Source: Eledone cirrhosa
Lineage: Eukaryota
Assembly: GCA_964016885.1 (NCBI GenBank)
Contig: OZ024749.1
Coordinates: 14,570,001 to 14,634,000 of the forward strand
Length of the DNA: 64,000 bases
Direction: 5' to 3'
The number at the start of each line of letters is the position of its first letter. Within the stretch, counting starts at the first letter, position 1. The translations under genes were made by a program, and so were the position numbers. The notes beneath the pieces were generated by a model. The model ran no database searches, was not told where the DNA came from, and was given only the letters and a program-made list of their open reading frames with translations. This document shows positions 1 to 56,384 of the stretch, piece by piece.

Positions 1-3000
1 GCTTGGTGGTTAGAAGGTGCAGGGCTGGTGGTTAGAGGGTGCACGGCTTGGTGGTTAGAAGGTGCAGGGCTGGTGGTTAGAAGGTGCAGGGCTGGTGGTT
101 AGAAGTTGCAGGGCTGGTGGTTAGAAGGTTCAAGGCTCGGTTGTTAGGTGTATGGCTTGGTGGTTAGAAGGTGTATGGCTTGGTGGTTAGAGGGTGTATG
201 GCTTGGTGGTTAGAAGGTGCAGGGCTGGGGGTTAGAAGGTGCATGGCTTGGTGGTTAGAAGGTGCAGGGCTGGTGGTTAGAGGGTGCAGGGCTTGGTGGT
301 TAGAAGGTGCAGGGTTGGTTGTTAGAGGGTGCAGGGCTTGGTGGTTAGAAGGTGCAGAGCTTGGTGGTTAGAAGGTGCAGGGCTGGTGGTTAGAAGGTGT
401 ATGGCTTGGTGGTTAGAAGGTGCAGGGCTGGTGGTTAGAATGTGCAGGGCTGGTGGTGAGAGGGTGTATGTCTTGGTGGTTAGAAGGTGCAGGGCTGGTG
501 GTTAGAGGGTGTATGTCTTGGTGGTTAGAAGGTGCAGGGCTGGTGGTTAGACGGTGCATGGCTTGGTGGTTAGAGGGTGTATGGCTTGGTGGTTAGAAGG
601 TGCAGGGCTGGTGGTTAGAGGGTGTATGGCTTGGTGGTTAGATGTATGGCTTGGTGGTTAGGTGTATGGCTTGTTGGTTAGAAGGTGCAGGGCTGGTGGT
701 TAGAAGGTATATGGCTTGGTGGTTAGAAGGTGTATGGCTTGGTGGTTAGAAGGTGCAGGGCTGGTGGTTAGAAGGTGCAGGGCTGGTGGTTAGAAGGTGT
801 ATGGCTTGGTGGTTAGAAGGTGTATGGCTTGGTGGTTAGAAGGTGCAGGGCTTGGTGGTTAGAAGGTGCAGGGCTGGTGGTTAGAAGGTATATGGCTTGG
901 TGGTTAGAAGGTGTATGGCTTGGTGGTTAGAAGGTGCAGGGCTGGTGGTTAGAAGGTGTATGGCTTGGTGGTGAGAAGGTGTATGGCTTGGTGGTTAGAA
1001 GGTGCAGGGCTGGTGGTTAGAAGGTGTAGGGCTTGGTGGTTAGAAGCTGTATGGCTTGGTGGTTAGAAGGTGCAGGGCTGGTGGTTAGAAGGTGCATGGT
1101 TTGGTGGTTAGAAGGTGTATTGCTTGGTGGTTAGAGGGTGCTGGGCTGGTGGTTAGAGGGTGTATGGCTTGGTGGTTAGAAGGTGCAGGGCTGGTGGTTA
1201 GAAGGTGTATGTCTTGGTGGTTAGGTGTATGGCTTGGTGGTTAGAAGGTGCAGGGCTGGTGGTTAGGTGTATGGCTTGGTGGTTAGAAGATGTATGGCTT
1301 GGTGGTTAGAAGGTGCAGGGCTGGTGATTAGAAGGTGCATGGTTTGGTGGTTAGAGGGTGTATTGCTTGGTGGTTAGAGGGTGCTGGGCTGGTGGTTAGA
1401 GGGTGTATGGCTTGGTGGTTAGAAGGTGTATGTCTTGGTGGTTAGAAGGTGTATGGCTTGGTGGTTAGAAGGTGTTTGGCTTGGTGGTTAGAAGGTGCAA
1501 GGCTGTTGGTTAGAGGGTGTATGGCTTGGTGGTTAGGTGTATGGCTTCGTGGTTAGAGGGTGCAGGGCTGGTGGTTAGAAGGTGTATGGCTTGGTGGTTA
1601 GAAGGTGTATGGCTTGGTGGTTAGAAGGTGCAGGGCTGGTGATTAGAGGGTGTATGGCTTGGTGGTTAGAAGGTGCAGGGCTGGTGGTTAGAAGGTGTAT
1701 GGCTTGGTGGTTAGAAGGTGCAGGGCTTGGTGGTTAGGTGTATGGCTTGGTGGTTAGAAGATGCAGGGCTGGTGGTTAGAGGGTGTATGGCTTGGTGGTT
1801 AGAAGGTGTATGGCTTGGTGGTTAGAAGGTGCAGGGCTGGTGGTTAGAGGGTGTATGGCTTGGTGGTTAGAGGGTGCAGGGCTGGTGGTCAGAAGGTGTA
1901 TGGCTTGGTGGTTAGAAGGTGCAGGGCTGGTGGTTAGAAGGTGTATGGCTTGGTGGTTAGAAGGTGTATGGCTTGGTGGTTAGAAGGTGCAGGGCTGGTG
2001 GTTAGAGGGTGTATGGCTTGGTGGTTAGAAGGTGTATGGCTTGGTGGTTAGAAGGTGTATGGTTTGGTGGTTAGAAGGTGCAGGGCTGGTGGTTAGAGGG
2101 TGTATGGCTTGGTGGTTAGGTGTATGGCTTGGTGGTTATAAGGTGTATGGCTTGGTGGTTAGAAGGTGCAGGGCTGGTGATTAGAGGGTGTATGGCTTGG
2201 TGGTTAGAAGGTGCAGGGCTTGTGGTTAGAAGGTATATGTCTTGGTGGTTACAAGGTGTATGGCTTGGTGGTTAGAAATTGCAGGGCTGGTGGTTAGAGG
2301 GTGTATGGCTTGGTGGTTAGGTGTATGGCTTGGTGGTTAGAGGGTGCAGGGCTGGTGGTTAGGTGTATGGCTTGGTGGTTAGAAGGTGTATGGCTTGGTG
2401 GTTAGAAGGTGCAGGGCTGGTGATTAGAGGGTGTATGGCTTGGTGGTTAGAAGGTGCAGGGCTGGTGGTTAGAAGGTGTATGGCTTGGTGGTTAGAAGGT
2501 GCAGGGCTTGGTGGTTAGAAGGTGTATGGCTTGGTGGTTAGAAGATGCAGGGCTGGTGGTTAGAGGGTGTATGGCTTGGTGGTTAGGTGTATGGCTTGGT
2601 GGTTAGAAGGTGCAGGGCTGGTGGTTAGAGGGTGTATGGCTTGGTGGTTAGAGGGTGCAGGGCTGATGGTCAGAAGGTGTATGGCTTGGTGGTTAGAAGG
2701 TGCAGGGCTGGTGGTTAGAGGGTGCAGGGCTGGTGCTTAGAGGGTGTATGGCTTGGTGGTTAGAAGGTGCAGGGCTGGTGGTTAGGTGTATGGCTTGGTG
2801 GTTAGAAGGTGTATGGCTTGGTGGTTAGAAGGTGCAGGGCTGGTGGTTAGAGGGTGTATGGCTTGGTGGTTAGAAGGTGTATGGCTTGGTGGTTAGAAGG
2901 TGTATGGTTTGGTGGTTAGAAGGTGCAAGGCTGGTGGTTAGAGGGTGTATGGCTTGGTGGTTAGAAGGTGTATGGCTTGGTGGTTATAAGGTGTATGGCT

Positions 3001-6000
3001 TGGTGGTTAGAAGGTGCAGGGCTGGTGATTAGAGGGTGTATGGGTTGGTGGTTAGAAGGTGCAGGGCTTGTGGTTAGAAGGTATATGGCTTGGTGGTTTC
3101 AAGGTGTATGGCTTGGTGGTTAGAAGGTGCAGGGCTGGTGGTTAGAGGGTGTATGGCTTGGTGGTTAGAAGGTGCAGGGCTGGTGGTTAGAAGGTGTCTG
3201 GCTTGGTGGTTAGATGGTGTATGGCTTGGTGGTTAGAAGGTGTAGGGCTGGTGGTTAGAGGGTGTATGGCTTGGTGGTTAGAAGGTGCAGGGCTGGTGGT
3301 TAGAAGGTGCATGGTTTGGTGGTTAGAGGGTGTATGGCTTGGTGGTTAGAAGGTGTATGGCTTGGTGGTTAGGTGTATGGCTTGGTGGTTAGAATGTGCA
3401 GGGCTGGTGGTTAGAAGGTGCAGGGCTGGTGGTTAGAAGGTGCATGGCTTGGTTTGGTAGAAGGTGTATGGCTTGGTAGTTAGAAGGTGCATGGCTTGGT
3501 GGTTAGAAGGTGCAGGGCTGGTGGTTAGAGGATGTATGGCTTGGTGGTTAAAAGGTGCATGGCTAGGTGGTTAGAAGGTGCATGGTTTGGTGGTTAGATG
3601 GTGTATGGCTTGGTGGTTAGAAGGTGCAGGGCTGGTGGTTAGAAGGTGCATGGCTTGATGGTTAGAAGGTGCAGAGCTGGTGGTTAGAAGGTGTATGGCT
3701 TGGTGTTTAGGTGTATGGCTTGGTGGTTAGAAGGTGCAGGGCTGGTGGTTAGAAGGTGCATGGCTGGTGGTTAGGTGTATGGCTTGATGGTTAGAAGGTG
3801 TATGGCTTGGTGGTTAGAAGGTGTATGGCTTGGTGGTTAGGTGTATGGCTTGGTGGTTAGAAGGTGCAGGGCTTGGTGGTTAGGTGTATGGCTTGGTGGT
3901 TAGGTGTATGGCTTGCTGGTTAGGTGTATGGCTTGATGGTTAGAAGGTGTATGGCTTGGTGGTTAAAAGGTGTATGGCTTGGTGGTTAGGTGTATGGCTT
4001 GGTGGTTAGGTGTATGGCTTGGTGGTTAGGTGTATGGCTTGATGGTTAGAAGGTGCAGGGCTGGTGGTTAGAAGGTGTATGTCTTGGTGGTTAGAAGGTG
4101 CATGGCTGGTGGTTAGAAGGTGTATGGCTTGATGGTTAGAAGGTGTATGGCTTGGTGGTTAGGTGTATGGCTTGGTGGTTAGAAGGTGTATGTCTTGGTG
4201 GTTAGGTGTATGGCTTGCTGGTTAGGTGTATGGCTTGATGGTTAGAAGGTGTATGGCTTGGTGGTTAGAAGGTGTATGGCTTGGTGGTTAGGTGTATGGC
4301 TTGGTGGTTAGAAGGTGCAGGGCTTGGTTGTTAGAGGGTGCAGGGCTTGGTGGTTAGAAGGTGCAGGGCTGGTGGTTAGAAGGTGTATGGCTTGGTGGTT
4401 AGAAGGTGCAGGGCTGGTGGTTAGAGGGTGCATGGCTTGGTGGTTAGAAGGTGCATGGCTTGGTGGTTAGAAGGTGCAGGGCTGGTGGTGAAAGGGTGTA
4501 TGTCTTGGTGGTTAGAAGGTGCAGGGCTGGTGGTTAGAGGGTGTATGTCTTGGTGGTTAGAAGGTGCAGGGCTGGTGGTTAGAAGGTGCATGGCTTGCTG
4601 GTTAGAAGGTGCTGGGCTGGTGGTTAGACGGTGTATGGCTTGGTGGTTAGAAGGTGTATGGCTTGGTGGTTAGAAGGTGCAGGGCTGGTGGTTAGAGGGT
4701 TTATGGCGTGGTGGTTAGAAGGTGCAGGGCTGGTGGTTAGAAGGTTCAGGGCTCGGTTGTTAGGTGTATGGCTTGGTGGTTAGAAGGTGTATGGCTTGGT
4801 GGTTAGAGGGTGTATGGCTTGGTGGTTAGAAGGTGCAGGGCTGGGGGTTAGAAGGTGCATGGCTTGGTGGTTAGAAGGTGCAGGGCTGGTGGTTAGAGGG
4901 TGCAGGGCTTGGTGATTAGAAGGTGCAGGGCTGGTTGTTAGAGGGTGCAGGGCTTGGTGGTTAGAAGGTGCAGGGCTGGTGGTTAGATCCTGTATGGCTT
5001 GGTGGTTAGAAGGTGTATGGCTTGGTGGTTAGAAGGTGCATGGCTTGGCGGTTAGAAGGTGCAGGGCTGGTGGTTAGAAGGTGCAGGGCTTGGTGGTTAG
5101 AAGGTGCAGAGCTTGGTGGTTAGAAGGTGCAGGGCTGGTGGTTAGAAGGTGTATGGCTTGGTGGTTAGAAGGTGCAGGGCTGGTGGTTAGAATGTGCAGG
5201 GCTGGTGGTGAGAGGGTGTATGTCTTGGTGGTTAGAAGGTGCAGGGCTGGTGGTTAGAGGGTGTATGGCTTGGTGGTTAGAAGGTGCAGGGCTGGTGGTT
5301 AGAAGGTGTATGGCTTGGTGGTTAGGTGTATGGCTTGGTGGTTAGGTGTATGGCTTGGTGGTTAGAAGGTGCAGGGCTGGTGGTTAGAAGGTATATGGCT
5401 TGGTGGTTAGGTGTATGGCTTGGTGGTTAGAAGGTGTATGGCTTGGTGGTTAGAAGGTGCAGGGCTGGTGGTTAGAAGGTGCAGGGCTGGTGGTTAGAAG
5501 GTGTATGGCTTGGTGGTTAGAAGGTGTATGGCTTGGTGGTTAGAAGGTGCAGGGCTTGGTGGTTAGAAGGTATATGGCTTGGTGGTTAGAAGGTATATGG
5601 CTTGGTGGTTAGAAGGTGTATGGCTTGGTGGTTAGAAGGTGTATGGCTTGGTGGTTAGAAGGTGCAGGATTTGGTGGTTAGAAGGTGCAGGGCTGGTGGT
5701 TAGAAGGTATATGGCTTGGTGGTTAGAAGGTGTATGGCTTGGTGGTTAGAAGGTGCAGGGCTGGTGGTTAGAAGGTGTATGGCTTGGTGGTGAGAAGGTG
5801 TATGGCTTGGTGGTTAGAAGGTGCAGGGCTGGTGGTTAGAAGGTGTATGGCTTGGTGGTTAGAAGCTGTATGGCTTGGTGGTTAGAAGGTGCAGGGCTGG
5901 TGGTTAGAAGGTGCATGGTTTGGTGGTTAGAGGGTGTATTGCTTGGTGGTTAGAGGGTGCTGGGCTGGTGGTTAGAAGGTGCAGGGCTGGTGGTTAGAAG

Positions 6001-9000
6001 GTGTATGTCTTGGTGGTTAGGTGTATGGCTTGGTGGTTAGAAGGTGCAGGGCTGGTGGTTGGAAGGTGCATGGTTTGGTGGTTAGAGGGTGTATTGCTTG
6101 GTGGTTAGAGGGTACTGGGCTGGTGGTTAGAGGGTGTATGGCTTGGTGGTTAGAAGGTGCAGGGCTGGTGGTTAGGTGTATGTCTTGGTGGTTAGAAGGT
6201 GTATGGCTTGGTGGTTAGAAGGTGTTTGGCTTGGTGGTTAGAAGGTGCAGGGCTGTTGGTTAGAGGGTGTATGGCTTGGTGGTTAGGTGTATGGCTTGGT
6301 GGTTAGAAGGTGTATGGCTTGGTGGTTAGAAGGTGTATGGCTTGGTGGTTAGAAGGTGCAGGGCTGGTGATTAGAGGGTGTATGGCTTGGTGGTTAGGTG
6401 TATGGCTTGGTGGTTAGAAGGTGCAGGGCTTGGTGGTTAGAAGGTGTATGGCTTGGTGGTTAGAAGATGCAGGGCTGGTGGTTAGAGGGTGCAGGGCTGG
6501 TGGTCAGAAGGTGTATGGCTTGGTCGTTAGAAGGTGCAGGGCTGGTGGTTAAAAGGTGTATGGCTTGGTGGTTAGAAGGTGTATGGCTTGGTGGTTAGAA
6601 GGTGCAGGGCTGGTGCTGAGAGGGTGTATGGCTTGGTGGTTAGGTGTATGGCTTGGTGGTTAGAAGGTGCAGGGCTGGTGGGTGGTTAGAGGGTGTATGG
6701 CTTGGTGGTTAGAAGGTGTATGGCTTGGTGGTTAGAAGGTGTATGGCTTGGTGGTTAGAAGGTGTAGGGCTGGTGGTTAGAGGGTGTATGGCTTGGTTGT
6801 TAGAAGGTGCAGGGCTGGCTGTTAGAAGATGCATGGCTTGGTGGTTAGAGGGTGTATGGCTTGGTGGTTAGAAGGTGCAGGGCTTGGTGGTTAGAAGGTG
6901 TATGGCTTGGTGGTTAGAAGGTGTATGGCTTGGTGGTTAGGTGTATGGCTTACTGGTTAGGTGTATGGCTTGATGGTTAGGTGTATGGCTTGGTGGTTAG
7001 AAGGTGTATGGCTTGGTGGTTAGGTGTATGGCTTGGTGGTTAGAAGGTGCAGGGCTTGGTGGTTAGGTGTATGGCTTGGTGGTTAGAAGGTGTATGTCTT
7101 GGTGGTTAGGTGTATGGCTTACTGGTTAGGTGTATGGCTTGATGGTTAGGTGTATGGCTTGGTGGTTAGAAGGTGTATGGCTTGGTGGTTAGGTGTATGG
7201 CTTGGTGGTTAGAAGGTGCAGGGCTTGGTGGTTAGGTGTATGGCTTGGTGGTTAGAAGGTGTATGTCTTGGTGGTTAGGTGTATGGCTTGCTGGTTAGGT
7301 GTATGGCTTGATGGTTAGGTGTATGGCTTGGTGGTTAAAAGGTGTATGGCTTGGTGGTTAGGTGTATGGCTTGGTGGTTAGGTGTATGGCTTGGTGGTTA
7401 GGTGTATGGCTTGGTGGTTAGAAGGTGCAGGGCTGGTGGTTAGAAGGTGTATGTCTTGGTGGTTAGAAGGTGCATGGCTGGTGGTTAGAAGGTGTATGGC
7501 TTGATGGTTAGAAGGTGTATGGCTTGGTGGTTAGAAGGTGTATGTCATGGTAGTTAGAAGGTGCATGGCTTGGTGGTTAGAAGGTGTATGGCTTGGTGGT
7601 TAGAAGGTGTATGGCTTGGTGGTTAGAAGGTGTATGGCTTGGTGGTTAGGTGTATGGTTTGGTGGTTAGAAAGTGTATGGCTTGGTTGTTAGAAGGTGCA
7701 GGGCTGGCTGTTAGAAGGTGCATGGCTTGGTGGTTAGAGGGTGTATGGCTTGGTGGTTAGAAGGTGCAGGGCTTGGTGGTTAGAAGGTGTATGGCTTGGT
7801 GGTTAGAAGGTGTATGGCTTGGTGGTTAGGTGTATGGCTTGGTTGTTAGAAGGTGTATGGCTTGGTGGTTAGAAGGTGAAGGGCTTGGTGCTTAGAAGGT
7901 GCATGGCTTTGTGGTTAGAAGGTGCATGGCTGGTGGTTATGTGTATGGCTTGGTGGTTAGAAGGTGTATGGCTTGGTGGTTAGAAGGTGCAGGGCTGGTG
8001 GTTAGGTGTATGGCTTGGTGGTTAGAAGGTGCAGGGCTGGTGGTTAGAAGGTGCATGGCTTGGTTTGGTAGAAGGTGTATGGCTTGGTAGTTAGAAGGTG
8101 CATGGCTTGGTGGTTAGAAGGTGCAGGGCTGGTGGTTAGAGGATGTATGGCTTGGTGGTTAAAAGGTGCATGGCTAGGTGGTTAGAAGGTGCATGGCTTG
8201 GTGGTTAGAAGGTGTATGGCTTGGTGGTTAGAAGGTGCAGGGCTGGTGGTTAGAAGGTGCATGGCTTGGTGGTTAGAAGGTGCAGAGCTGGTGGTTAGAA
8301 GGTGTATGGCTTGGTGGTTAGAAGGTGAAGGGCTGGTGGTTAGAAGGTGTATGGCTTGGTGGTTAGAAGGTGCAGGGCTGGTGGTTAGAAGGTGCAGGGG
8401 TGGTGGTTAGAAGGTGCATAGCTTGGTGGTTAGAAGGTGCAGGGCTGGTGATTAGAGGGTGCAGGGCTTGGTGGTTAGAAGGTGCAGGGCTGGTGGTTAG
8501 AGGGTGCAGGGCTTGGTAGTTAGAAGGTGCAGGGCTGGTGGTTAGAAGGTGCAGGGCTGGTGGATAGAAGTTGCATGGCTTGGTGGTTAGAAGGTGCAGG
8601 GCTGGTGGTTAGAAGGTGCAGGGCTGGTGGTTAGAGGGTGCAGGGCTTGGTTGTTAGAGGGTGCAGGGCTTGGTGGTTAGAAGGTGCAGGGCTGGTGGTT
8701 AGAAGGTGTATGGCTTGGTGGTTAGAAGGTGCAGGGCTGGTGGTTAGAGGGTGCATGGCTTGGTGGTTAGAAGGTGCATGGCTTGGTGGTTAGAAGGTGC
8801 AGGGCTGGTGGTGAGAGGGTGTATGTCTTGGTGGTTAGAAGGTGCAGGGCTGGTGGTTAGAGGGTGTATGTCTTGGTGGTTAGAAGGTGCAGGGCTGGTG
8901 GTTAGAAGGTGCATGGCTTGCTGGTTAGAAGGTGCTGGGCTGGTGGTTAGACGGTGTATGGCTTGGTGGTTAGAAGGTGTATGGCTTGGTGGTTAGAAGG

Positions 9001-12000
9001 TGCAGGGCTGGTGGTTAGAGGGTTTATGGCGTGGTGGTTAGAAGGTGCAGGGCTGGTGGTTAGAAGGTTCAGGGCTCGGTTGTTAGGTGTATGGCTTGGT
9101 GGTTAGAAGGTGTATGGCCTGGTGGTTAGAGGGTGTATGGCTTGGTGGTTAGAAGGTGCAGGGCTGGGGTTAGAAGGTGCATGGCTTGGTGGTTAGAAGG
9201 TGCAGGGCTGGTGGTTAGAGGGTGCAGGGCTTGGTGATTAGAAGGTGCAGGGCTGGTTGTTAGAGGGTGCAGGGCTTGGTGGTTAGAAGGTGCAGGGCTG
9301 GTGGTTAGATCCTGTATGGCTTGGTGGTTAGAAGGTGTATGGCTTGGTGGTTAGAAGGTGCATGGCTTGGCGGTTAGAAGGTGCAGGGCTGGTGGTTAGA
9401 AGGTGCAGGGCTTGGTGGTTAGAAGGTGCAGAGCTTGGTGGTTAGAAGGTGCAGGGCTGGTGGTTAGAAGGTGGATGGCTTGGTGGTTAGAAGGTGCAGG
9501 GCTGGTGGTTAGAATGTGCAGGGCTGGTGGTGAGAGGGTGTATGTCTTGGTGGTTAGAAGGTGCAGGGCTGGTGGTTAGAGGGTGTATGGCTTGGTGGTT
9601 AGAAGGTGCAGGGCTGGTGGTTAGAAGGTGTATTGCTTGGTGGTTAGGTGTATGGCTTGGTGGTTAGAAGGTGTATGGCTTGGTGGTTAGAAGGTGCAGG
9701 GCTGGTGGTTAGAAGGTATATGGCTTGGTGGTTAGGTGTATGGCTTGGTGGTTAGAAGGTGTATGGCTTGGTGGTTAGAAGGTGCAGGGCTGGTGGTTAG
9801 AAGGTGCAGGGCTGGTGGTTAGAAGGTGTATGGCTTGGTGGTTAGAAGGTGTATGGCTTGGTGGTTAGAAGGTGCAGGGCTTGGTGGTTAGAAGGTGCAG
9901 GGTTGGTGGTTAGAAGGTATATGGCTTGGTGGTTAGAAGGTGTATGGCTTGGTGGTTAGAAGGTGTATGGCTTGGTGGTTAGAAGGTGCAGGATTTGGTG
10001 GTTAGAAGGTGCAGGGCTGGTGGTTAGAAGGTATATGGCTTGGTGGTTAGAAGGTGTATGGCTTGGTGGTTAGAAGGTGCAGGGCTGGTGGTTAGAAGGT
10101 GTATGGCTTGGTGGTGAGAAGGTGTATGGCTTGGTGGGTAGAAGGTGCAGGGCTGGTGGTTAGAAGGTGTATGGCTTGGTGGTTAGAAGCTGTATGGCTT
10201 GGTGGTTAGAAGGTGCAGGGCTGGTGGTTAGAAGGTGCATGGTTTGGTGGTTAGAGGGTGTATTGCTTGGTGGTTAGAGGGTGCTGGGCTGGTGGTTAGA
10301 AGGTGCAGGGCTGGTGGTTAGAAGGTGTATGTCTTGGTGGTTAGGTGTATGGCTTGGTGGTTAGAAGGTGCAGGGCTGGTGGTTAGGTGTATGGCTTGGT
10401 GGTTAGAAGGTGCAGGGCTGGTGGTTGGAAGGTGCATGGTTTGGTGGTTAGAGGGTGTATTGCTTGGTGGTTAGAGGGTACTGGGCTGGTGGTTAGAGGG
10501 TGTATGGCTTGGTGGTTAGAAGGTGCAGGGCTGGTGGTTAGGTGTATGTCTTGGTGGTTAGAAGGTGTATGGCTTGGTGGTTAGAAGGTGTTTGGCTTGG
10601 TGGTTAGAAGGTGCAGGGCTGTTGGTTAGAGGGTGTATGGCTTGGTGGTTAGGTGTATGGCTTGGTGGTTAGAAGGTGTATGGCTTGGTGGTTAGAAGGT
10701 GTATGGCTTGGTGGTTAGAAGGTGCAGGGCTGGTGATTAGAGGGTGTATGGCTTGGTGGTTAGGTGTATGGCTTGGTGGTTAGAAGGTGCAGGGCTTGGT
10801 GGTTAGAAGGTGTATGGCTTGGTGGTTAGAAGATGCAGGGCTGGTGGTTAGAGGGTGCAGGGCTGGTGGTCAGAAGGTGTATGGCTTGGTGGTTAGAAGG
10901 TGCAGGGCTGGTGGTTAAAAGGTGTATGGCTTGGTGGTTAGGTGTATGGCTTGGTGGTTAGAAGGTGCAGGGCTGGTGCTGAGAGGGTGTATGGCTTGGT
11001 GGTTAGGTGTATGGCTTGGTGGTTAGAAGGTGCAGGGCTGGTGGGTGGTTAGAGGGTGTATGGCTTGGTGGTTAGAAGGTGTATGGCTTGGTGGTTATAA
11101 GGTGTATGGCTTGGTGGTTAGAAGGTGCAGGGCTGGTGGTTAGAGGGTGTATGGCTTGGTGGTTAGAAGGTGCAGGGCTGGTGGTTAGAAGGTGTCTGGC
11201 TTGGTGGTTAGAAGGTGTATGGCTTGGTGGTTAGAAGGTGTAGGGCTGGTGGTTAGAGGGTGTATGGCTTGGTGGTTAGAAGGTGCAGGGCTGGTGGTTA
11301 GAAGGTGCATGGTTTGGTGGTTAGAGGGTGTATGGCTTGGTGGTTAGGTGTATGGCTTGGTGGTTAGGTGTATGGCTTGGTGGTTAGAATGTGCAGGGCT
11401 GGTGGTTAGAAGGTGCAGGGCTGGTGGTTAGAAGGTGCATGGCTGGTGGTTAGGTGTATGGCTTGATGGTTAGAAGGTGTATGGCTTGATGGTTAGAAGG
11501 TGTATGGCTTGGTGGTTAGAAGGTGTATGGCTTGGTGGTTAGAAGGTGTATGGCTTGGTGGTTAGGTGTATGGCTTGGTGGTTAGAAGGTGCAGGGCTTG
11601 GTGGTTAGGTGTATGGCTTGGTGGTTAGAAGGTGTATGGCTTGGTGGTTAAAAGGTGTATGGCTTGCTGGTTAGGTGTATGGCTTGGTGGTGAGGTGTAT
11701 GGCTTGGTGGTTAGAAGGTGCAGGGCTGGTGGTTAGAAGGTGTATGTCTTGGTGGTTAGAAGGTGCATGGCTGGTGGTTAGAAGGTGTATGGCTTGGTGG
11801 TTAGAAGGTGTATGGCTTGGTGGTTAGAAGGTGTATGTCATGGTAGTTAGAAGGTGCATGGCTTGGTGGTTAGGTGTATGGCTTGGTGGTTAGAAGGTGT
11901 ATGGTTTGGTGGTTAGAAAGTGTATGGCTTGGTTGTTAGAAGGTGCAGGGCTGGCTGTTAGAAGGTGCATGGCTTGGTGGTTAGAGGGTGTATGGCTTGG

Positions 12001-15000
12001 TGGTTAGAGGGTGTATGGCTTGGTGGTTAGAAGGTGCAGGGCTTGGTGGTTAGAAGGTGTATGGCTTGGTGGTTAGAAGGTGTATGGCTTGGTGGTTAGG
12101 TGTATGGCTTGGTTGTTAGAAGGTGTATGGCTTGGTGGTTAGAAGGTGAAGGGCTTGGTGGTTAGAAGGTGCATGGCTTTGTGGTTAGAAGGTGCATGGC
12201 TGGTGGTTAGAAGTTGTATGGCTTGGTGGTTAGAAGGTGTATGGCTTGGTGGTTAGAAGATGCAGGGCTGGTGGTTAGGTGTATGGCTTGGTGGTTAGAA
12301 TGTGCAGGGCTGGTGGTTAGAAGGTGCAGGGCTGGTGGTTAGAAGGTGCATGGCTTGGTTTGGTAGAAGGTGTATGGCTTGGTAGTTAGAAGGTGCATGG
12401 CTTGGTGGTTAGAAGGTGCAGGGCTGGTGGTTAAAGGATGTATGGCTTGGTGGTTAAAAGGTGCATGGCTAGGTGGTTAGAAGGTGCATGGCTTGGTGGT
12501 TAGAAGGTGTATGGCTTGGTGGTTAGAAGGTGCAGGGCTGGTGGTTAGAAGGTGTATGGCTTGGTGGTTAGAAGGTGCAGGGCTGGTGGTTAGAAGGTGC
12601 ATGGCTGGTCGTTAGGTGTATGGCTTGATGGTTAGAAGGTGTATGGCTTGGTGGTTAGAAGGTGTATGGCTTCGTGGTTAGAAGGTGTATGGCTTGGTGG
12701 TTAGGTGTATGGCTTGGTGGTTAGAAGGTGTATGTCTTGGTGGTTAGGTGTATGGCTTGCTGGTTAGGTGTATGTCTTGATGGTTAGAAGGTGTATGGCT
12801 TGGTGGTTAAAAGGTGTATGGCTTGGTGGTTAGGTGTATGGCTTGGTGGTTAGGTGTATGGCTTGGTGGTTAGGTGTATGGCTTGGTGGTTAGAAGGTGT
12901 ATGGCTTGGTGGTTAGAAGGTGTATGTCTTGGTGGTTAGAAGGTGCATGGCTGGTGGTTAGAAGGTGTATGGCTTGGTGGTTAGAATGTGTATGGCTTGG
13001 TGGTTAGAAGGTGTATGTCATGGTAGTTAGAAGGTGCATGGCTTGGTGGTTAGAAGGTGTATGGCTTGGTGGTTAGAAGGTGTATGGCTTGGTGGTTAGA
13101 AGGTGTATGGCTTGGTGGTTAGGTGTATGCTTTGGTGGTTAGAAAGTGTATGACTTGGTTGTTAGAAGGTGCAGGGCTGGCGGTTAGAAGGTGCATGGCT
13201 TGGTGGTTAGAGGGTGTATGGCTTGGTGGTTAGAAGGTGCAGGGCTTGGTGGTTAGAAGGTGTATGGCTTGGTGGTTAGGTGTATGGCTTGGTGGTTAGG
13301 TGTATGGCTTGCTGGTTAGGTGTATGGCTTGGTTGTTAGGTGTATGGCTTGGTGGTTAGAAGGTGAAGGGCTTTGTGGTTAGAAGGTGCATGGCTGGTGG
13401 TTAGAAGCTGTATGGCTTGGTGGTTAGGTGTATGGCTTGGTGGTTAGGTGTATGGCTTGGTGGTTAGAAGGTGTATGGCTTGGTGGTTAGAAGGTGTATG
13501 GCTTCGTGGTTAGAAGGTACAGGGCTTGGTGGTTAGTAGGTGCAGGGCTTGGTGGTTAGAAGGTGTATGGCTTGGTGGTAAGGTGCAGGGCTTGGTTGTT
13601 AGAAAGTGCAGGGCTTGGTGGTTAGAAGGTGCAGGGCTTGGTGGTTAGAAGGTGTATGGCTTGGTGGTAAGAAGGTGCATGGCTGGTGGTTAGGTGTATG
13701 GCTTGGTGGTTAGGTGTATGGCTTGGTGGTTAGAAGGTGCATGGCTTGGTGGTTAGGTGTATGGCTTGGTGGTTAGGTGTATGGCTTGGTGGTTAGAAGG
13801 TGCATGGCTTGGTGGTTAGAAGGTGTATGGCTTGGTGGTTAGAGGGTGCATGGCTTATTGGTTAGAGGGTGTATGGCTTGGTGGTTAGAAGGTGTATGGC
13901 TTGGTGGTTAGAAGGTGTATGGCTTGGTGGTTAGAAGGTGTATGGCTTGGTGGTTAGAAGGTGCAGGGCTTGGTGGTTAGAAGGTGCATGGCTTGGTGGT
14001 TAGAAGGTGCATGGCTATTGGTTAGAAGGTGTATGGCTTGGTGGTTAGAAGGTGTATGGCTTGGTGGTTAGAAGGTGTATGGCTTGGTGGTTAGAAGGTG
14101 CATGGCTTGGTGGTTAGGTGTATGGCTTGGTGGTTAGGTGTATGCCTTGGTGGTTAGGTGTATGGCTTGGTGGTTAGAAGGTGTATGGCTTGGTGGTTAG
14201 AAGGTGCATGGCTTGGTGGTTAGAAGGTATATGGCTTGGTGGTTAGAAGGTGCAGGGCTTGGTGGTTAGAAGGTGCATGGCTTGGTGGTTAGAAGGTGCA
14301 TGGCTTGGTGGTTAGAAGGTGCATGGCTGGTGGTTAGAAGGTGTATGGCTTGGTGGTTAGAAGGTGCAGGGCTTGGTGGTTAGAAGGTGCATGGCTTGGT
14401 GGTTAGAAGGTGCATGGCTTGGTGGTTAGAAGGTGCATGGCTTGGTGGTTAGAAGGTGCAGGGCTTGGTGGTTAGAAGGTGCATGGCTTGGTGGTTAGAA
14501 GGTGCATGGCTGGTGGTTAGAAGGTGTATGGCTTGGTGGTTAGAAGGTGTATGGCTTGGTGGTTAGAAGGTGCATGGCTTGGTGGTTAGAAGGTGCATGG
14601 CTGGTGGTTAGAAGGTGTATGGCTTGGTGGTTAGAAGGTGCATGGCTTGGTGGTTAGAGGGTGCATGGCTTGTTGGTTAGAAGGTGCATGGCTGGTGGTT
14701 AGAAGGTGTATGGCTTGGTAGTTAGAAGGTGTATGGCTTGGTGGTTAGAAGGTGCAGGGCTGGTGGTTAGAAGGTGCATGGCTTGGTGGTTAGAAGGTGT
14801 ATGGCTTGGTGGTTAGGTGTATGGTTTGGTGGTTAGGTGTATGGCTTGGTGGTTAGAAGGTGCAGGGCTTGGTGGTTAGAAGGTGTATGGCTTGGTGGTT
14901 AGAAGGTGCAGGGCTGGTGGTTAGAAGGTGCATGGCTTGGTGGTTAGAAGGTGTATGGCTTGGTGTATAGAAGGTGCATGGCTTGGTAGTTAGGTGTATG

Positions 15001-15995
15001 GCTTGGTGGTTAGAAGGTGCAGGGCTGGTGGTTAGAAGGTGCATGGCTTGGTGGTTAGAAGGTGTATGGCTTGGTGGTTAGGTGTATGGTTTGGTGGTTA
15101 GAAGGTGTATGGCTTGGTGGTTAGAAGGTGCAGGGCTTGGTGGTTAGAGGGTGTATGGCTTGGTGTATAGAAGGTGCATGGCTTGGTGGTTAGAAGGTGA
15201 AGGGCTGGTGGTTAGAAGGTGCAGGGCTTGGCGGTTAGGTGTATGGCTTGGTGGTTAGAAAGTGTATGGCTTGGTGGTTAGAGGGTGTATGGCTTGGTGG
15301 TTAGAAGGTGTATGGCTTGGTGGTTAGGTGTATGGCTTGGTGTATAGAAGGTGCATGGCTTGGTGGTTAGAAGGTGCAGGGCTTGGTGGTTAGAAGGTGC
15401 AGGGCTTGGCGGTTAGGTGTATGACTTGGTGGTTAGAAAGTGTATGGCTTGGTGGTTAGAGGGTGTATGGCTTGGTGGTTAGAAGGTGTATGGCTTGGTG
15501 GTTAGACGGTGTATGGCTTGGTGGTTATAAGGTGTATGGCTTGGTGGTTAGATTGTGCAGGGCTGGTGGATAGAAGGTGCAGGGCTTGGTGGTTAGAAGA
15601 TGCATGGCTTGGTGGTTAGGTGTATGGCTTGGTGGTTAGAAGGTGTATGGCTTGGTGGTTAGAAGGTGCATGGCTTGGTGGTTAGAGGGTGCATGGCTGG
15701 TGGTTAGAAGGTGCATGGCTTGGTGGTTAGAGGGTGTATGGCTTGGTGGTAAGAAGGTGCATGGCTTGGTGGTTAGAGGGTGTATGGCTTGGTGGTAAGA
15801 AGGTGCATGGCTTGGTGGTTAGAGGGTGTATGGCTTGGTGGTTAGAAGGTGCAGGGCTGGTGGTTAGAGGGTGTATGTCTTGGTGGTTAGAAGGTGCAGG
15901 GCTGGTGGTTAGAAGGTGCATGGCTTGGTGGTTAGAGTGTGTATGGCTTGGTGGTTAGAGGGTGTATGGCTTGGTGGTTAGAAGGTGCAGGGCTT
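1..15995. repeat. Giant G-rich satellite of 20-23 bp units (gaaggtgtatggcttggtggtta / gaaggtgcagggctggtggtta) with ~4.3-4.6 kb higher-order duplications
   Basis: Continuous tandem units from base 1 to ~15995. Rare variants recur at ~4.3 kb spacing (gatcc at 4986 and 9308; aggttc..gctcgg near 126, 4742, 9065; identical ORFs at 6021 and 10387). Confidence 0.97.
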
Positions 15996-16269
15996 GCAAT
16001 CATGAGGTTCTAGAGAAAACCTTTGACAGAGTTGACATACACATGTACTAATTTGCATATAACTATCAACAGAAGCATTAATATGCAAATTAGTAGATCT
16101 GTTTCAGAATACTTCTAAGAGTGAATGGGTGTATAAAACTATTAAATATGAGTTTCCTTGTGGTTGTTTACCTGATCCACACACGTCTTCTGATGAATAC
16201 CCAACTAGGTCTGAAAATCAGGGAAATACAGGGAAATTCGTATTTTTTGGCATAAGAACATGTCTACAT

Positions 16270-32990: not shown

Positions 32991-33155
32991 AGAAATGGCT
33001 CCTCTGATAAGAAATGGAATGGCATGATTGGGGAGCTGGTGTCAGGAGAAGCAGACATGATCATGGCTCCTCTCACTATTAACCCAGAGAGGGCACAACA
33101 CATTGACTTCTCAAAGCCTTTCAAATATCAAGGCCTTACCATTCTAGTAAAAAAG
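32991..33155 (+). CDS. GRIN1: NMDA receptor GluN1 exon: end of S1 ligand-binding segment
   Basis: ttgcag|AGA...AAG|gtaaga, 165 nt, phase 0-0. [55 protein letters not shown] matches GluN1, including the PLTINxER glycine-binding motif. Confidence 0.97.
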
Positions 33156-42998: not shown

Positions 42999-44855
42999 CT
43001 ATCACCAACCAGTTTCTATATGTTTCCCATAAAATACATCCAGCCCCTATCACTAACCAGTTTCTATATTTTTCCCATAAAATACATCCAGCCCCTACAG
43101 CTAACCAGTTTCTATATTTTTCCCATAAAATACATCCAGCCCCTACAGCTAACCAGTTTCTATATTTTTCCCATAAAATACATCCAGCCCCTATCACTAA
43201 CCAGTTTCTATATTTTTCCCATAAAATACATCCAGCCCCTACAGCTAACCAGTTTCTATATTTTTCCCATAAAATACATCCAGCCCCTATCACTAACCAG
43301 TTTCTATATTTTTCCCATAAAATACATCCAGCCCCTATCACTAACCAGTTTCTATATTTTTCCCATAAAATACATCCAGCCCCTATCACTAACCAGTTTC
43401 TATATTTTTCCCATAAAATACATCCAGCCCCTATCACTAACCAGTTTCTATATTTTTCCCATAAAATACATCCAGCCCCTATCACTAACCAGTTTCTATA
43501 TTTTTCCCATAAAATACATCCAGCCCCTATCACTAACCAGTTTCTATATTTTTCCCATAAAATACATCCAGCCCCTATCACTAACCAGTTTCTATATTTT
43601 TCCCATAAAATACATCCAGCCCCTATCACTAACCAGTTTCTATATTTTTCCCATAAAATACATCCAGCCCCTATCACTAACCAGTTTCTATATTTTTCCC
43701 ATAAAATACATCCAGCCCCTATCACTAACCAGTTTCTATATTTTTCCCATAAAATACATCCAGCCCCTATCACTAACCAGTTTCTATATTTTTCCCATAA
43801 AATACATCCAGCCCCTATCACTAACCAGTTTCTATATTTTTCCCATAAAATACATCCAGCCCCTATCACTAACCAGTTTCTATATTTTTCCCATAAAATA
43901 CATCCAGCCCCTATCACTAACCAGTTTCTATGTTTTTCCCATAAAATACATCCAGCCCCTATCACTAACCAGTTTCTATGTTTTTCCCATAAAATACATC
44001 CAGCCCCTATCACTAACCAGTTTCTATATTTTTCCCATAAAATACATCCAGCCCCTATCACTAACCAGTTTCTATATTTTTCCCATAAAATACATCCAGC
44101 CCCTATCACTAACCAGTTTCTATATTTTTCCCATGAAATACATCCAGCCCCTATCACTAACCAGTTTCTATGTTTTTCCCATAAAATACATCCAGCCCCT
44201 ATCACTAACCAGTTTCTATGTTTTTCCCATAAAATACATCCAGCCCCTATCACTAACCAGTTTCTATGTTTTTCCCATGAAATACATCCAGCCCCTATCA
44301 CTAACCAGTTTCTATGTTTTTCCCATGAAATACATCCAGCCCCTATCACTAACCAGTTTCTATGTTTTTCCCATGAAATACATCCAGCCCCTATCACTAA
44401 CCAGTTTCTATGTTTTTCCCATGAAATACATCCAGCCCCTATCACTAACCAGTTTCTATGTTTTTCCCATGAAATACATCCAGCCCCTATCACTAACCAG
44501 TTTCTATGTTTTTCCCATGAAATACATCCAGCCCCTATCACTAACCAGTTTCTATGTTTTTCCCATGAAATACATCCAGCCCCTATCACTAACCAGTTTC
44601 TATGTTTTTCCCATAAAATACATCCAGCCCCTATCACTAACCAGTTTCTATGTTTTTCCCATAAAATACATCCAGCCCCTATCACTAACCAGTTTCTATG
44701 TTTTTCCCATAAAATACATCCAGCCCCTATCACTAACCAGTTTCTATGTTTTTCCCATAAAATACATCCAGCCCCTATCACTAACCAGTTTCTATGTTTT
44801 TCCCATGAAATACATCCAGCCCCTATCACTAACCAGTTTCTATGTTTCTTTCCAG
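42999..44855 (+). repeat. 48-bp minisatellite (~38.5 copies) ending in the 3' splice site of the M3 exon
   Basis: Unit actaaccagtttctatatttttcccataaaatacatccagcccctatc; the last unit reads actaaccagtttctatgtttctttccag|exon. Confidence 0.97.
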
Positions 44856-45004
44856 GTACACCCCGCAGTTTTAGCGCCCGTGTTCTAGGAATGGTCTGGG
44901 CAGGTTTTGCTATGATAATAGTTGCCTCCTATACTGCTAACTTGGCTGCATTCCTTGTATTAGATCGACCCGAAGCTTCCATTTCTGGAATTGATGATCC
45001 CCGT
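44856..45004 (+). CDS. GRIN1: NMDA receptor GluN1 exon: M3 gate
   Basis: ttccag|GT ACA...CGT|gtaagt, 149 nt, phase 1-0. (G)[49 protein letters not shown] with the SYTANLAAF motif. Confidence 0.98.
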
Positions 45005-46924: not shown

Positions 46925-47082
46925 CTTCGAAATCCACAAGAAAACTTTAAATACGCCACAGTAAAGAAGAGTGCTGTGGAGATGTACTTCAAGAGACAGG
47001 TGGAGTTGTCTACCATGTATCGCACCATGGAGACGCGCAATTACAACACAGCCGAGGAAGCCATTGAAGATGTGCGACAAGG
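46925..47082 (+). CDS. GRIN1: NMDA receptor GluN1 exon: S2 part 1
   Basis: tttcag|CTT...CAA GG|gtatgt, 158 nt, phase 0-2. [53 protein letters not shown]. Confidence 0.97.
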
Positions 47083-47104: not shown

Positions 47105-47565
47105 AGATGTCTGTGGCTGGGTGCCCTTCCTATTACAACCCATTTTACAGAGTGTACAGGGTGTATTTTATGGCACCAGCACTAGGGAGGTTGTCATGCC
47201 TTGGCCACAACTTAAGTGTTCTCTCAATACTTTAATACTTTGTTTGGCAAATTTTCAATAGGTTGATACTCTACCTATTATCAACCATTTTACAGAGTGT
47301 ACAGGGTGTATTTTATCATGGCCCCAGCACTAGGGAGGTTGTCATGTCTTTGACACAACTGAAGAGTCCTCCAAAGCAATAGTTTGGCAAATGTTCAATG
47401 GCTGGATTCCCTTCCTATTATCAACCACTTTACAGAATGTACAAGGTGTATTTTATCATGGCCCCAACACTAGGGAGATTGTCATGTCTTTGCCACAACT
47501 GAAAAATCTTTACAACCCTTTGTTGGCAAGTTTTCTATGGCTGGATTCCCTTCCTATTATCAATC
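47105..47565. repeat. Diverged ~135-150 bp tandem repeat (~3.3 copies) just after the exon donor
   Basis: Recurrent cttcctatta..caaccattttacagagtgtacagggtgtatttta..ggc.ccagcactagggaggttgtcatg. Confidence 0.85.
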
Positions 47566-53125: not shown

Positions 53126-53258
53126 GTATTCTATATGAATATGTGTGAATATATATGTGTGTGTATATATATATATATATGTGTATTCTATTTGAATGTG
53201 TGTGTGCATATATATATATATATTCTACTTGAATGTATTGTTTTCTTTCCTCTAACAG

Positions 53259-53363
53259 GTGGTTATATGGAAGACTTAGACTCAAAGTGGATCTTAGTAG
53301 AAAGTCACAACTGTCCAGAGAGGGACTCATCACCTGCCACCCTGGGGCTTACCAACATGGCAG
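53259..53363 (+). CDS. GRIN1: NMDA receptor GluN1 exon: S2 end and pre-M4
   Basis: taacag|GT GGT...GCA G|gtagat, 105 nt, phase 1-1. (S)GYMEDLDSKWILVESHNCPERDSSPATLGLTNMAG. Confidence 0.97.
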
Positions 53364-53524
53364 GTAGATATAACAATGTTTTGATCATCTTAATTGTAAT
53401 TATGTGTGGGTGGATGTCTATATCTTGCTGTGTGTATGTGTGGTCAGCAATATGTTGTTGTGTGGATGGTTGCTGGAGGTGTTTACTTGTTTTTATTGTT
53501 GTTGTCTCTGTACAGGTGTATTTA

Positions 53525-55020
53525 ATAATAGTAATGAAATTATTGTGTACAGTGCTCAGGTGCGCAACAACTCATCAAAGGTGCATGTATAGAACATAGA
53601 ATAATGTTCAAATGTCAGGAAAATGAACAGTGTATGAGTCATGAAATACATGTGTGCGTGTGTATGGAGGGGAATATCAGGTGTAGTGTTGGCGAATCTC
53701 TGGAAACATGGAGGTTTTAAAGGATGCAGTGTCTCGGCAGCTAACAACTGATGCAGGTAGTTTTGTTCCATGCTGCAGCAAGTCTCAGCGTGAAAAAATG
53801 TTTCCGAAAGTCATGGGAGCTGTGCTGTTTTTTTACTTTGTAGGCATGCCCACGTGGAAATCAAAAATGTACCCAGGGTTGTTGTTAAGATGTTTAATAA
53901 TTTGGTGGGTGTTTACCAAGTCAGACATTGGAGCTTCAATGCCCAGGGAAGCAAGGCGTTCTGAGTATGGTAGATGCCTGATGGAGGGTATTCACTTGGT
54001 TGCATGTTTCTGAACAGTTTCTAAGAGGTCAGTGTTCTGAGCCAGACTGGTGATACAAATTCTAAGTGTGGCCGCACCATAGCTATATACAGTTTTAAAT
54101 AGATAGCTGGAGAGCGGCTGACAAAGGTGTTGCTGAGTGATGCTAAGACACCCTCTCCCTTCTTGACAATTTTAGAAACGTGCTTCATCCAACGCAAATC
54201 GCTGCTGACAGTAATGCCCAGGTCACGTTCACAAGAAGACTTCTTGATATTAGAGTTGTGGAGGGAGTATGTGGAATCTGGGTTTTTACTCCCAAAATGC
54301 ATGGTGGTACACTTGTCCACAGCCAACTTGAGTTGCCAGTTCATGATCCATTGTTGCATGGTGTCCCGGTCTGATTGCAGGAAAGATCTATAGTGTTCAG
54401 GATCTGTCCTTTTTATCTCAAGGTACAGCTTGATGTCATCTGCATATTTCAGTACTGTGACATTCTTTAAGTTGGCATCTATGTCATTAATATATGCCAC
54501 AAACAAAAGTGGTACACCAGATGACATCTCATACAGTGAGAAATGCTGTCCCAGAACCATGACTACCTCTCTTCGACTGAGAATGAAGGACTTCAACCAG
54601 TTAAAAAGATCATCCTTCACACCCATTGCAGAGGGTTTTGCCATAAGTCTTTTGTGTGGCACAGAATTGAAAGCTTTAGCAAAGTCAAGGTAGACAACAT
54701 CGACCCATGAGCCGCCATCAGTGATGCGAGTGATGTCTTCAAGAAACTCGATAAGTTGATCACAGCAGCTGGAGTTGGGGATAAATCCAAATTGCGAGGG
54801 CCAGATAAGACTGTGAGAGTTCCAGAAGTTCCAAAGTGTTTCTCTGACACAGGATTCCATCAGTTTGGCAATGCAGCTAGTAAGACTGACTGGACGATAG
54901 TTGACAGGTGATGTGTGGTCACCCTTTTTGAACAGAGGAATGACATTGGCAGTTTTCCACTGCTCCGTTTTCCAACAGTAGCACCATTGTTCAGACAGAA
55001 TTAAAAGAAGAGTGATAGCC
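53525..55020 (-). mobile_element. 5'-truncated, degenerate CR1-clade LINE (RT)
   Basis: ORF 54021-54860: QFGF, VDVVYLDFAKAFNSVPH, YADDIKLY, ERDLG, VRPHLEF. The QGSVLGP motif is deleted (SGVP|LLF), and stops/frameshifts are present. Confidence 0.9.
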
Positions 55021-55670
55021 GGAGATATTTACCTGTTTTTATTGTTGTTGTTGTTTTTGACTCTATATAGGTGTAGGTATGATGGTTACTGGAGATATTT
55101 ACCTGTTGTTGTCTCTGTACAGGTGTATTTATGATGGTTGCTGGAGGTATTTACCTGTTGTTGTCTCTGTACAGGTGTATTTATGATGGTTGCTGGAGGT
55201 ATTTACCTGTTGTTGTCTCTGTATAGGTGTAGTTATGATGGTTACTGGAGATATTTACCTGTTGTTGTCTCTGTACAGGTGTAGTTATGATGGTTACTGG
55301 AGGTATTTACCTGTTGTTGTCTCTGTACAGGTGTATTTATGATGGTTGCTGGAGGTATTTACCTGTTGTTGTCTCTGTACAGGTGTATTTATGATGGTTG
55401 CTGGAGGTATTTACCTGTTGTTGTCTCTGTACAGGTGTAGTTATGATGGTTACTGGAGATATTTACCTGTTGTTGTCTCTGTACAGGTGTAGTTATGATG
55501 GTTACTGGAGGTATTTACCTGTTGTTGTCTCTGTACAGGTGTATTTATGATGGTTGCTGGAGGTATTTACCTGTTGTTGTCTCTGTACAGGTGTATTTAT
55601 GATGGTTGCTGGAGGTATTTACCTGTTGTTGTCTCTGTACAGGTGTATTTATGATGGTTGCTGGAGGTAT
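55021..55670 (+). repeat. 52-bp minisatellite (11 regular copies plus 1 degenerate) made of the M4-exon acceptor and the first 28 exon nt
   Basis: Unit acctgttgttgtctctgtacagGTGTATTTATGATGGTTGCTGGAGgtattt at 55101, 55153 ... 55621; the last copy continues into the real exon. Confidence 0.97.
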
Positions 55671-55788
55671 AGTAGCTGGAGTACTACTGATCTTTGTGGA
55701 AATATTATACAAACGGCATCGGGGCATGAAGGAGAAAGAGCTGGAGTTAGCACGCAATGCTGCAGATCGGTGGCGTGGGAATATTGAG
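55643..55788 (+). CDS. GRIN1: NMDA receptor GluN1 exon: M4 and C0 region
   Basis: gtacag|GT GTA...GAG|gtcagt, 146 nt, phase 1-0. (G)VFMMVAGGIVAGVLLIFVEILYKRHRGMKEKELELARNAADRWRGNIE. Confidence 0.96.
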
Positions 55789-56033
55789 GTCAGTTCTCTC
55801 TCTCTCTCTCACTCTTTCTCTCACTCTTTCTCTCACTCTCTCTCTCTCTATACATATATATATATGTGTATATATATATGTATATGTACATATATATACA
55901 TACATATATATTTATATATTTATATGTATATATATATATATAGTAGAAGTTGTATTTAATTTGTTGGAAGTCCGACGAACATAAATGTTTATACCTGATT
56001 TAGAGCACTCAACAGATTTCTGGAGTAAATATT

Positions 56034-56384
56034 CAATGATATTAAATAAATGGAAACTATATTTATAAAACCATATTTATTCTATTATATATATTTCAAG
56101 GACAACCAAGACACACTGGTACGCTTTCATCAGATAAAATACAAAGTTTGTTTTATAAATAGAGACATACCCATGAAAATCATACCTTATCGGTTGAAGA
56201 TTCACTGGATAGTATCAGTGAATCTTCAACCGATAAGGTATGATTTTCATGGGTATGTCTCTATTTATAAAACAAACTTTGTATTTTATCTGATGAAAGC
56301 GTACCAATGTGTCTTGGTTGTCCTTGAAATATATATAATAGAATAAATATGGTTTTATAAATATAGTTTCCATTTATTTAATAT

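Follow-up and report, generated by a model that had tools for sequence, protein, structure and literature searches.

In the cephalopod Eledone cirrhosa, the exon that encodes the M4 helix of GluN1 is preceded by a tandem array in which the splice acceptor of that same exon recurs many times. Which of these acceptors are used, and could the repeated units act as small exons? We analyzed a window of 64,000 nt around the array (assembly GCA_964016885.1, contig OZ024749.1, positions 14,570,001 to 14,634,000, forward strand); coordinates below are positions in this window unless the contig is named. An initial annotation of the window had offered two options: either the spliceosome skips the extra acceptors, or the array yields pre-M4/M4 isoforms of variable length. 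By analogy with published repeats at intron-exon boundaries, skipping appears to be the likelier of the two. As judged from sequence comparisons, the array is probably a "mirage" minisatellite that is removed whole with the intron, with only the last acceptor in use. Repeats of this type, a class that the initial annotation did not recognise in the feature, have been described before from lancelets and humans; the present one lies in a cephalopod neural gene.

The GluN1 gene and the repeated acceptors

The initial annotation identified the gene and the helix correctly, and its geometry holds as well. The M4 exon matches residues 816–863 of human GluN1 (there are also matches to GluN1 in the PDB) and includes the C0 domain. 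Orthology and the order of M4 followed by a calmodulin-binding C0 domain support the assignment to GluN1. The seven exons in the window splice to an open frame of 377 residues, of which 374 are identical to GluN1 from Argonauta and Octopus vulgaris. The exon upstream of the array (53259–53363) has AG and GT borders and an open spliced frame. In RNA contigs from relatives it is joined to 55643, and both borders of the M4 exon (55643–55788) are present as well. Since the match to the human protein begins at V816, the codon that is split by the intron is the equivalent of G815. This conserved glycine of M4 is critical for gating: in the data given in PMC6138751, single substitutions there cut the open probability to 0.02 or less. 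After 55788, RNA contigs from two relatives enter different next exons, and these two continuations match the longer and shorter C-terminal isoforms of GluN1 among Octopus proteins.

Tandem Repeats Finder reports the array at 55052–55670, with a period of 52, 11.9 copies, and 96% matches. If a degenerate copy is included, the whole 52-nt array extends over 55023–55666, with about 11 head-to-tail copies ahead of the M4 exon (Table 1). In each 52-nt unit, 28 nt from the end of the intron are joined to 24 nt from the start of the exon at 55643, and the last copy of the array is the authentic intron-exon boundary. The ten extra acceptors that the initial annotation counted before the real one are all present, as clean sites at 52-nt intervals from 55123 to 55591. 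In eight of these copies, the 24 nt are followed by GTATTT, as had been stated; six of the eight encode VFMMVAGG and two encode VVMMVTGG. The two copies said to have lost the GT are those at 55227 and 55435, which have ATATTT instead. Two further acceptors had been overlooked. One belongs to an eleventh, degenerate copy (acceptor at 55071, no GT). The other is a relic at 53516 that is followed by 9 exon-derived nt and lies to the left of a LINE. A 14-nt exon-derived fragment (53465–53478) is also left of the LINE and is likely to be the oldest unit.

Table 1. Features of the intron before the M4 exon and of its flanking exons (window coordinates).
Position	Strand	Feature	Evidence
53259..53363	+	GluN1 exon for the last part of S2 and the pre-M4 linker, with its 3' end in phase 1	tblastn, 97% to Octopus GluN1
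53465..53478	+	Decayed exon fragment, 14 nt identical to the start of the M4 exon, without an acceptor	Pairwise alignment
53479..53524	+	Relic unit interrupted by the LINE: intron end with a long spacer, AG at 53514–53515, and 9 nt from the start of the exon	Genome match at 82%
53525..55022	-	5'-truncated, frameshifted antisense LINE with RT domain, about 1.5 kb, most likely inserted inside one unit	RVT_1, E 4.9e-27
55023..55094	+	Degenerate unit with a long spacer and an acceptor at 55071, lacking GT	
55095..55614	+	Ten clean units of 52 nt, each with 28 nt of intron end and 24 nt of exon start; GT follows eight and AT follows two	
55615..55642	+	Authentic intron end, homologous to the single acceptor of relatives	Ends of relatives' DNA contigs (X1, X9)
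55643..55788	+	Authentic M4 and C0 exon, 146 nt	100% to Octopus and Argonauta GluN1; CaM_bdg_C0 (PF10562)

All 11 upstream copies in the array keep the AG, and 8 of 11 keep the GT, which a linked change abolishes in the other three. The inner units differ from each other at just 0–3 of 52 positions; the edge unit with its acceptor at 55071 has diverged, has a longer spacer, and has variants in common with the B-type units. Three positions are substituted in the 24-nt part, and all of the changes alter a residue (F>V, V>G, and A>T). Within 55095–55614 there is a higher-order repeat of four units, as identity is 98.9% at a period of 208 nt versus 97.1% at 52 nt. The array is the sole multi-copy match of its stretch in this genome, which excludes a chance origin, and the locus is single. 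As in a mirage, the unit spans the boundary, AG and GT are found in many but not all units, and the interior is homogenised with diverged units at the edge.

Origin of the array and the LINE insertion

In both of the relatives whose DNA was compared (contigs X1 and X9), the exon has a single acceptor and there is no array. The intron of these relatives ends in a sequence that matches the 28-nt spacer, first bases (GTATT) included; the sequence ahead of this match is not exonic. The GT in the units therefore needs no selection to account for it. The normal exon reads GGAG-GTAT at the end of the unit, so GTAT is common to the exon and the ancestral intron, exactly at the unit junction. The apparent GT donor is likely just a microhomology of the duplication. 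We propose that a tandem duplication brought together GGAG-GTAT from the exon and GTAT from the ancestral intron end, in which case the duplication itself would have left every exon copy with a GT behind it. Later, an antisense LINE would have inserted within one unit, and the units to its right would then have expanded and been homogenised, including a block duplication of four units.

The LINE is 84–91% identical to each of the nine other genomic copies that we fetched, and we take it to be CR1/L2-like from the look of its protein. Homology to the other copies stops at 55018–55022 and at 53520–53533, with short microhomologies at both junctions, and DNA from relatives has a high-copy edge at 53523–53525. 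(Over the stretch 53235–53600, the alignments of three DNA runs from relatives were confined to the upstream exon and the end of the LINE.) Both of the units that flank the LINE have a longer spacer that is absent from the inner units, and hence the LINE most likely landed in a boundary that was already duplicated. A less likely alternative is that the LINE struck the real exon and that a long target-site duplication rebuilt the acceptor. The exon-derived sequence at 53465–53478, to the left of the relic, indicates an earlier duplicate, and a target deletion of 8–13 nt within an existing array fits the junctions equally well.

Other loci of this genome also have boundary duplicates, which favours the reading as a mirage. 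We used 90 exon loci, 30 each from searches with GluN1-like, myosin, and kinesin proteins (the best 30 of 37, 72, and 107 matches, respectively); the set may include redundant loci, and 13 loci have matches of over 450 nt and may be single-exon genes. A scan with exact 15-mers flagged 3 of the 90 loci, and a blastn-short scan flagged 7. Overall, 3 of 90 exon loci had a boundary duplicate within 1.5 kb, this array included, and only the M4 locus among the three is an array. Another is a single diverged copy of a different GluN1 acceptor (L030:971–995, contig positions 14561540–14561564, about 8 kb upstream of the window). It comprises the acceptor and about 18 nt of exon and is identical at 23 of 25 positions; a CT-rich repeat lies in the 530 nt between it and the real exon downstream. 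The remaining one (L046:1392–1414) is a 23-nt copy, with 22 identical positions, of a probable myosin donor region whose boundary was inferred from the reading frame; it lies 110 nt into the intron. Four other candidates were rejected, two because they are purely intronic (L007 and L009) and two because they are short matches away from the boundary (L064 and L079).

Other repeats are present in and around the introns of this gene. At 42999–44847, 38.5 copies of a 48-nt unit (99% matches) form an array whose end lies in the polypyrimidine tract that precedes the GluN1 exon at 44856. Its units hold a branch-point consensus, a pyrimidine run, and CAG, and no exon sequence. The donor at 47082 is followed, after about 30 nt, by a 140-nt repeat of 3.2 copies (47114–47563); within each unit, a short stretch looks like the junction at the M4 acceptor, perhaps through chance. 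A G-rich unit of 23 nt makes up a 16-kb array (1–15996, 717 copies) in a GluN1 intron, with the exon at contig positions 14563951–14564079 on one side and window position 32991 on the other. In the intron after the M4 exon, we saw by eye a long and near-perfect inverted repeat (56088–56380) that is perhaps MITE-like.

Which acceptors are likely to be used

Microexons are up to about 27 nt long. Eight of the units are 24-nt cassettes that run from AG to GT in phase 1/1, so they have the structure of microexons, and because the exon at 53259–53363 ends in phase 1, a 24-nt cassette keeps the frame. The initial annotation also held that read-through from any upstream AG shifts the frame or runs into a TGA and that only non-adjacent units could be joined. 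Both statements stand up: a stop is reached in 12 of 12 cases (including 55071 and 53516), and adjacent units are separated by spacers of 28 nt, while the gaps between non-adjacent units are at least 80 nt. With just 28 nt between the cassette at 55591 and the real acceptor, no more than seven cassettes are usable; seven lie at a distance of 80 nt or more from that acceptor. A transcript could include four at most if joining is limited to non-adjacent units.

Each unit has the same acceptor and the same predicted branch site as the authentic boundary. To describe the donors, we used the energy of the duplex with U1 as the measure of strength. Pairing of the pseudo-donor is -5.8 kcal/mol, as compared to -6.5 to -11.6 kcal/mol for 13 of 13 real GluN1 donors. 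The pseudo-donor has T at +5, where the real GluN1 donors have G (11 donors) or A (2 donors). The corresponding GTAT site inside the real exon pairs at -8.0 kcal/mol, yet it is read through in RNA contigs of two out of two relatives. By consensus matching, the pseudo-donor has 6 of 9 positions, which is within the range of the real donors (5–8), and none of 54 unused exonic GT sites reaches 6. The pseudo-donor also overlaps the only branch-point-like motif of the spacer, at -22 of the next acceptor, and because of this overlap it would be expected to compete with that acceptor. In the authentic intron end (55615–55642), a motif scan places the predicted branch point at TTTAC, at -22, where it overlaps the last pseudo-donor.

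Among the 24 sequencing runs that a search listed, the best share was 0.47 of 15 words, which points to relatives only, and no DNA run of this species was among them. RNA contigs from two relatives (X7 and X2) join the upstream exon straight to 55643 and read through the exon's GGAG-GTAT. Since the DNA of the relatives that we compared is without the array, their RNA supports the gene model only, and for the same reason neither their RNA nor their proteins inform on how the array is spliced. Reads were compared over 53235–53600 and 55591–55800, and joints between distant units fall outside this view. Another run (X21, listed as "same sample", RNA by guess) had no contig on the exon at 53259–53363 and bears neither way. 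A doubled motif was found in none of 103 homologous proteins, of which 65 span the junction and none is known from this species. M4 is invariant across these 65 homologues.

These observations suggest how the array might stay silent. The last acceptor alone precedes a full exon of 146 nt with a good donor; for the 24-nt copies, the donor would be weak and would coincide in part with the branch point predicted for the next acceptor; and any read-through product would meet a premature stop and would be cleared. Exon definition would probably account for the success of the last acceptor. Two published results weigh against silence. When human 3' splice sites compete, the overall preference is for the upstream one, and long introns do no more than lessen it (PMC9225289, section 9); and in a minigene described in PMC3265369, duplicated AGGT motifs were spliced at 6–16%.

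The first of these results, together with the finding that the pseudo-sites of F7 are functional when tested (PMC1557585), would fit an array that leaks, with upstream acceptors or cassettes used at a low and unregulated rate, so that alleles with arrays of different length would differ in how much intact GluN1 mRNA they give. Every unit does have the acceptor and the predicted branch site of the real one, and with 12 of 12 read-throughs stopping early, the products would be lost. We nevertheless think that such leakage is unlikely: the relic that the LINE split off suggests that the array has been tolerated for a long time, and in the accounts of mirages in PMC3087553 and PMC3902484 they yield no aberrant mRNA. 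Far less probable is that the cassettes are functional alternative microexons, which would add 8 to 32 hydrophobic residues after the hinge glycine of M4 and give GluN1 isoforms with altered gating. The symmetric in-frame cassettes with AG and GT in eight units, the donor with its 6 of 9 consensus matches, and the gaps between non-adjacent units, which exceed the minimum of about 60 nt (PMC3265369), all allow for this, and recruitment of exons from mirages has been proposed as a hypothetical model (PMC3087553). But microhomology explains the GT, the array is absent from both of the relatives compared, and the variants look unselected: substitutions in the cassettes are all non-synonymous or destroy the donor, which is lost in 3 of 11 copies. 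M4 is also invariant in the homologues that span the junction, and given the effect of single substitutions at G815, an insertion of eight residues there would more likely be harmful than useful.

That at least one of the seven usable cassettes reaches a measurable share of GluN1 mRNA seems quite improbable to us. If it were so, this would be the birth of a microexon in progress, with M4 lengthened by 8n residues after the hinge glycine and a range of isoforms set by the repeat allele, and a working example of the exon recruitment that is only a hypothetical model in PMC3087553. We see hardly any chance that the array is an assembly artefact with an inflated copy number or invented copies. The number of copies is that of the assembly, but linked variants form the four-unit higher-order pattern (98.9% at a period of 208 nt), diverged copies flank the LINE with ordinary junctions, and the locus is single in the genome.

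If the array is indeed a silent mirage, it is a natural series of acceptors that are all identical and of which the last has to prevail, and its in-frame cassettes and marker variants would reveal which unit was used. Amplicon sequencing could therefore measure acceptor choice and test the model that leads from mirage to exon. The array can also mislead gene prediction and the mapping of short reads at M4 of GluN1.

Comparison with known boundary repeats

A literature search, which is a weak test, found no mirage from a cephalopod. In amphioxus, mirages are tandem copies of an intron end and an exon start with many AG and GT sites; they are unstable in length, and splicing was undisturbed as judged by RT-PCR (PMC3087553). 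Mirages in amphioxus Adh, TnC, and PGBD5 are reported without aberrant mRNA in PMC3902484. The Eledone array resembles the mirages of Adh3, the globins BflGb6 and BflGb9, troponin C, and PGBD5 in that an intron's 3' end and an exon's 5' part are repeated within the intron before the authentic exon, with AG and GT kept in many, though not all, units and with more diverged units at the edges. Its 52-nt unit falls within the 10–72 bp given for amphioxus Adh3. It differs in being from a cephalopod, in that every unit with a GT is an in-frame cassette of 24 nt, and in being split by a LINE. Length polymorphism and neutrality for splicing have been shown for amphioxus, whereas the Eledone array is known from assembled sequence.

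Three human and related cases are also informative. In CBS 844ins68, as in Eledone, an intron/exon junction is duplicated at the start of an exon, and the distal site is strongly favoured, giving normal mRNA (PMC2630376, PMC4479818). Unlike the 11-copy array of Eledone, the CBS duplicate is single, 68 bp long, and polymorphic. The 37-bp VNTR in IVS7 of human F7 likewise spans an exon-intron boundary, and its pseudo-sites are identical, functional, and normally silent (PMC1557585). F7 repeats donors, whose silence is attributed to 5'-to-3' scanning; Eledone repeats acceptors, of which the last must win, so scanning alone would be insufficient. Finally, intron gain at AGGT in ATP2A1 is similar in that AG|GT motifs that were duplicated can be recognised as splice sites (PMC3265369). 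In ATP2A1, however, a purely exonic duplicate gave rise to a new intron, whereas the duplicate in Eledone straddles an acceptor that already existed.
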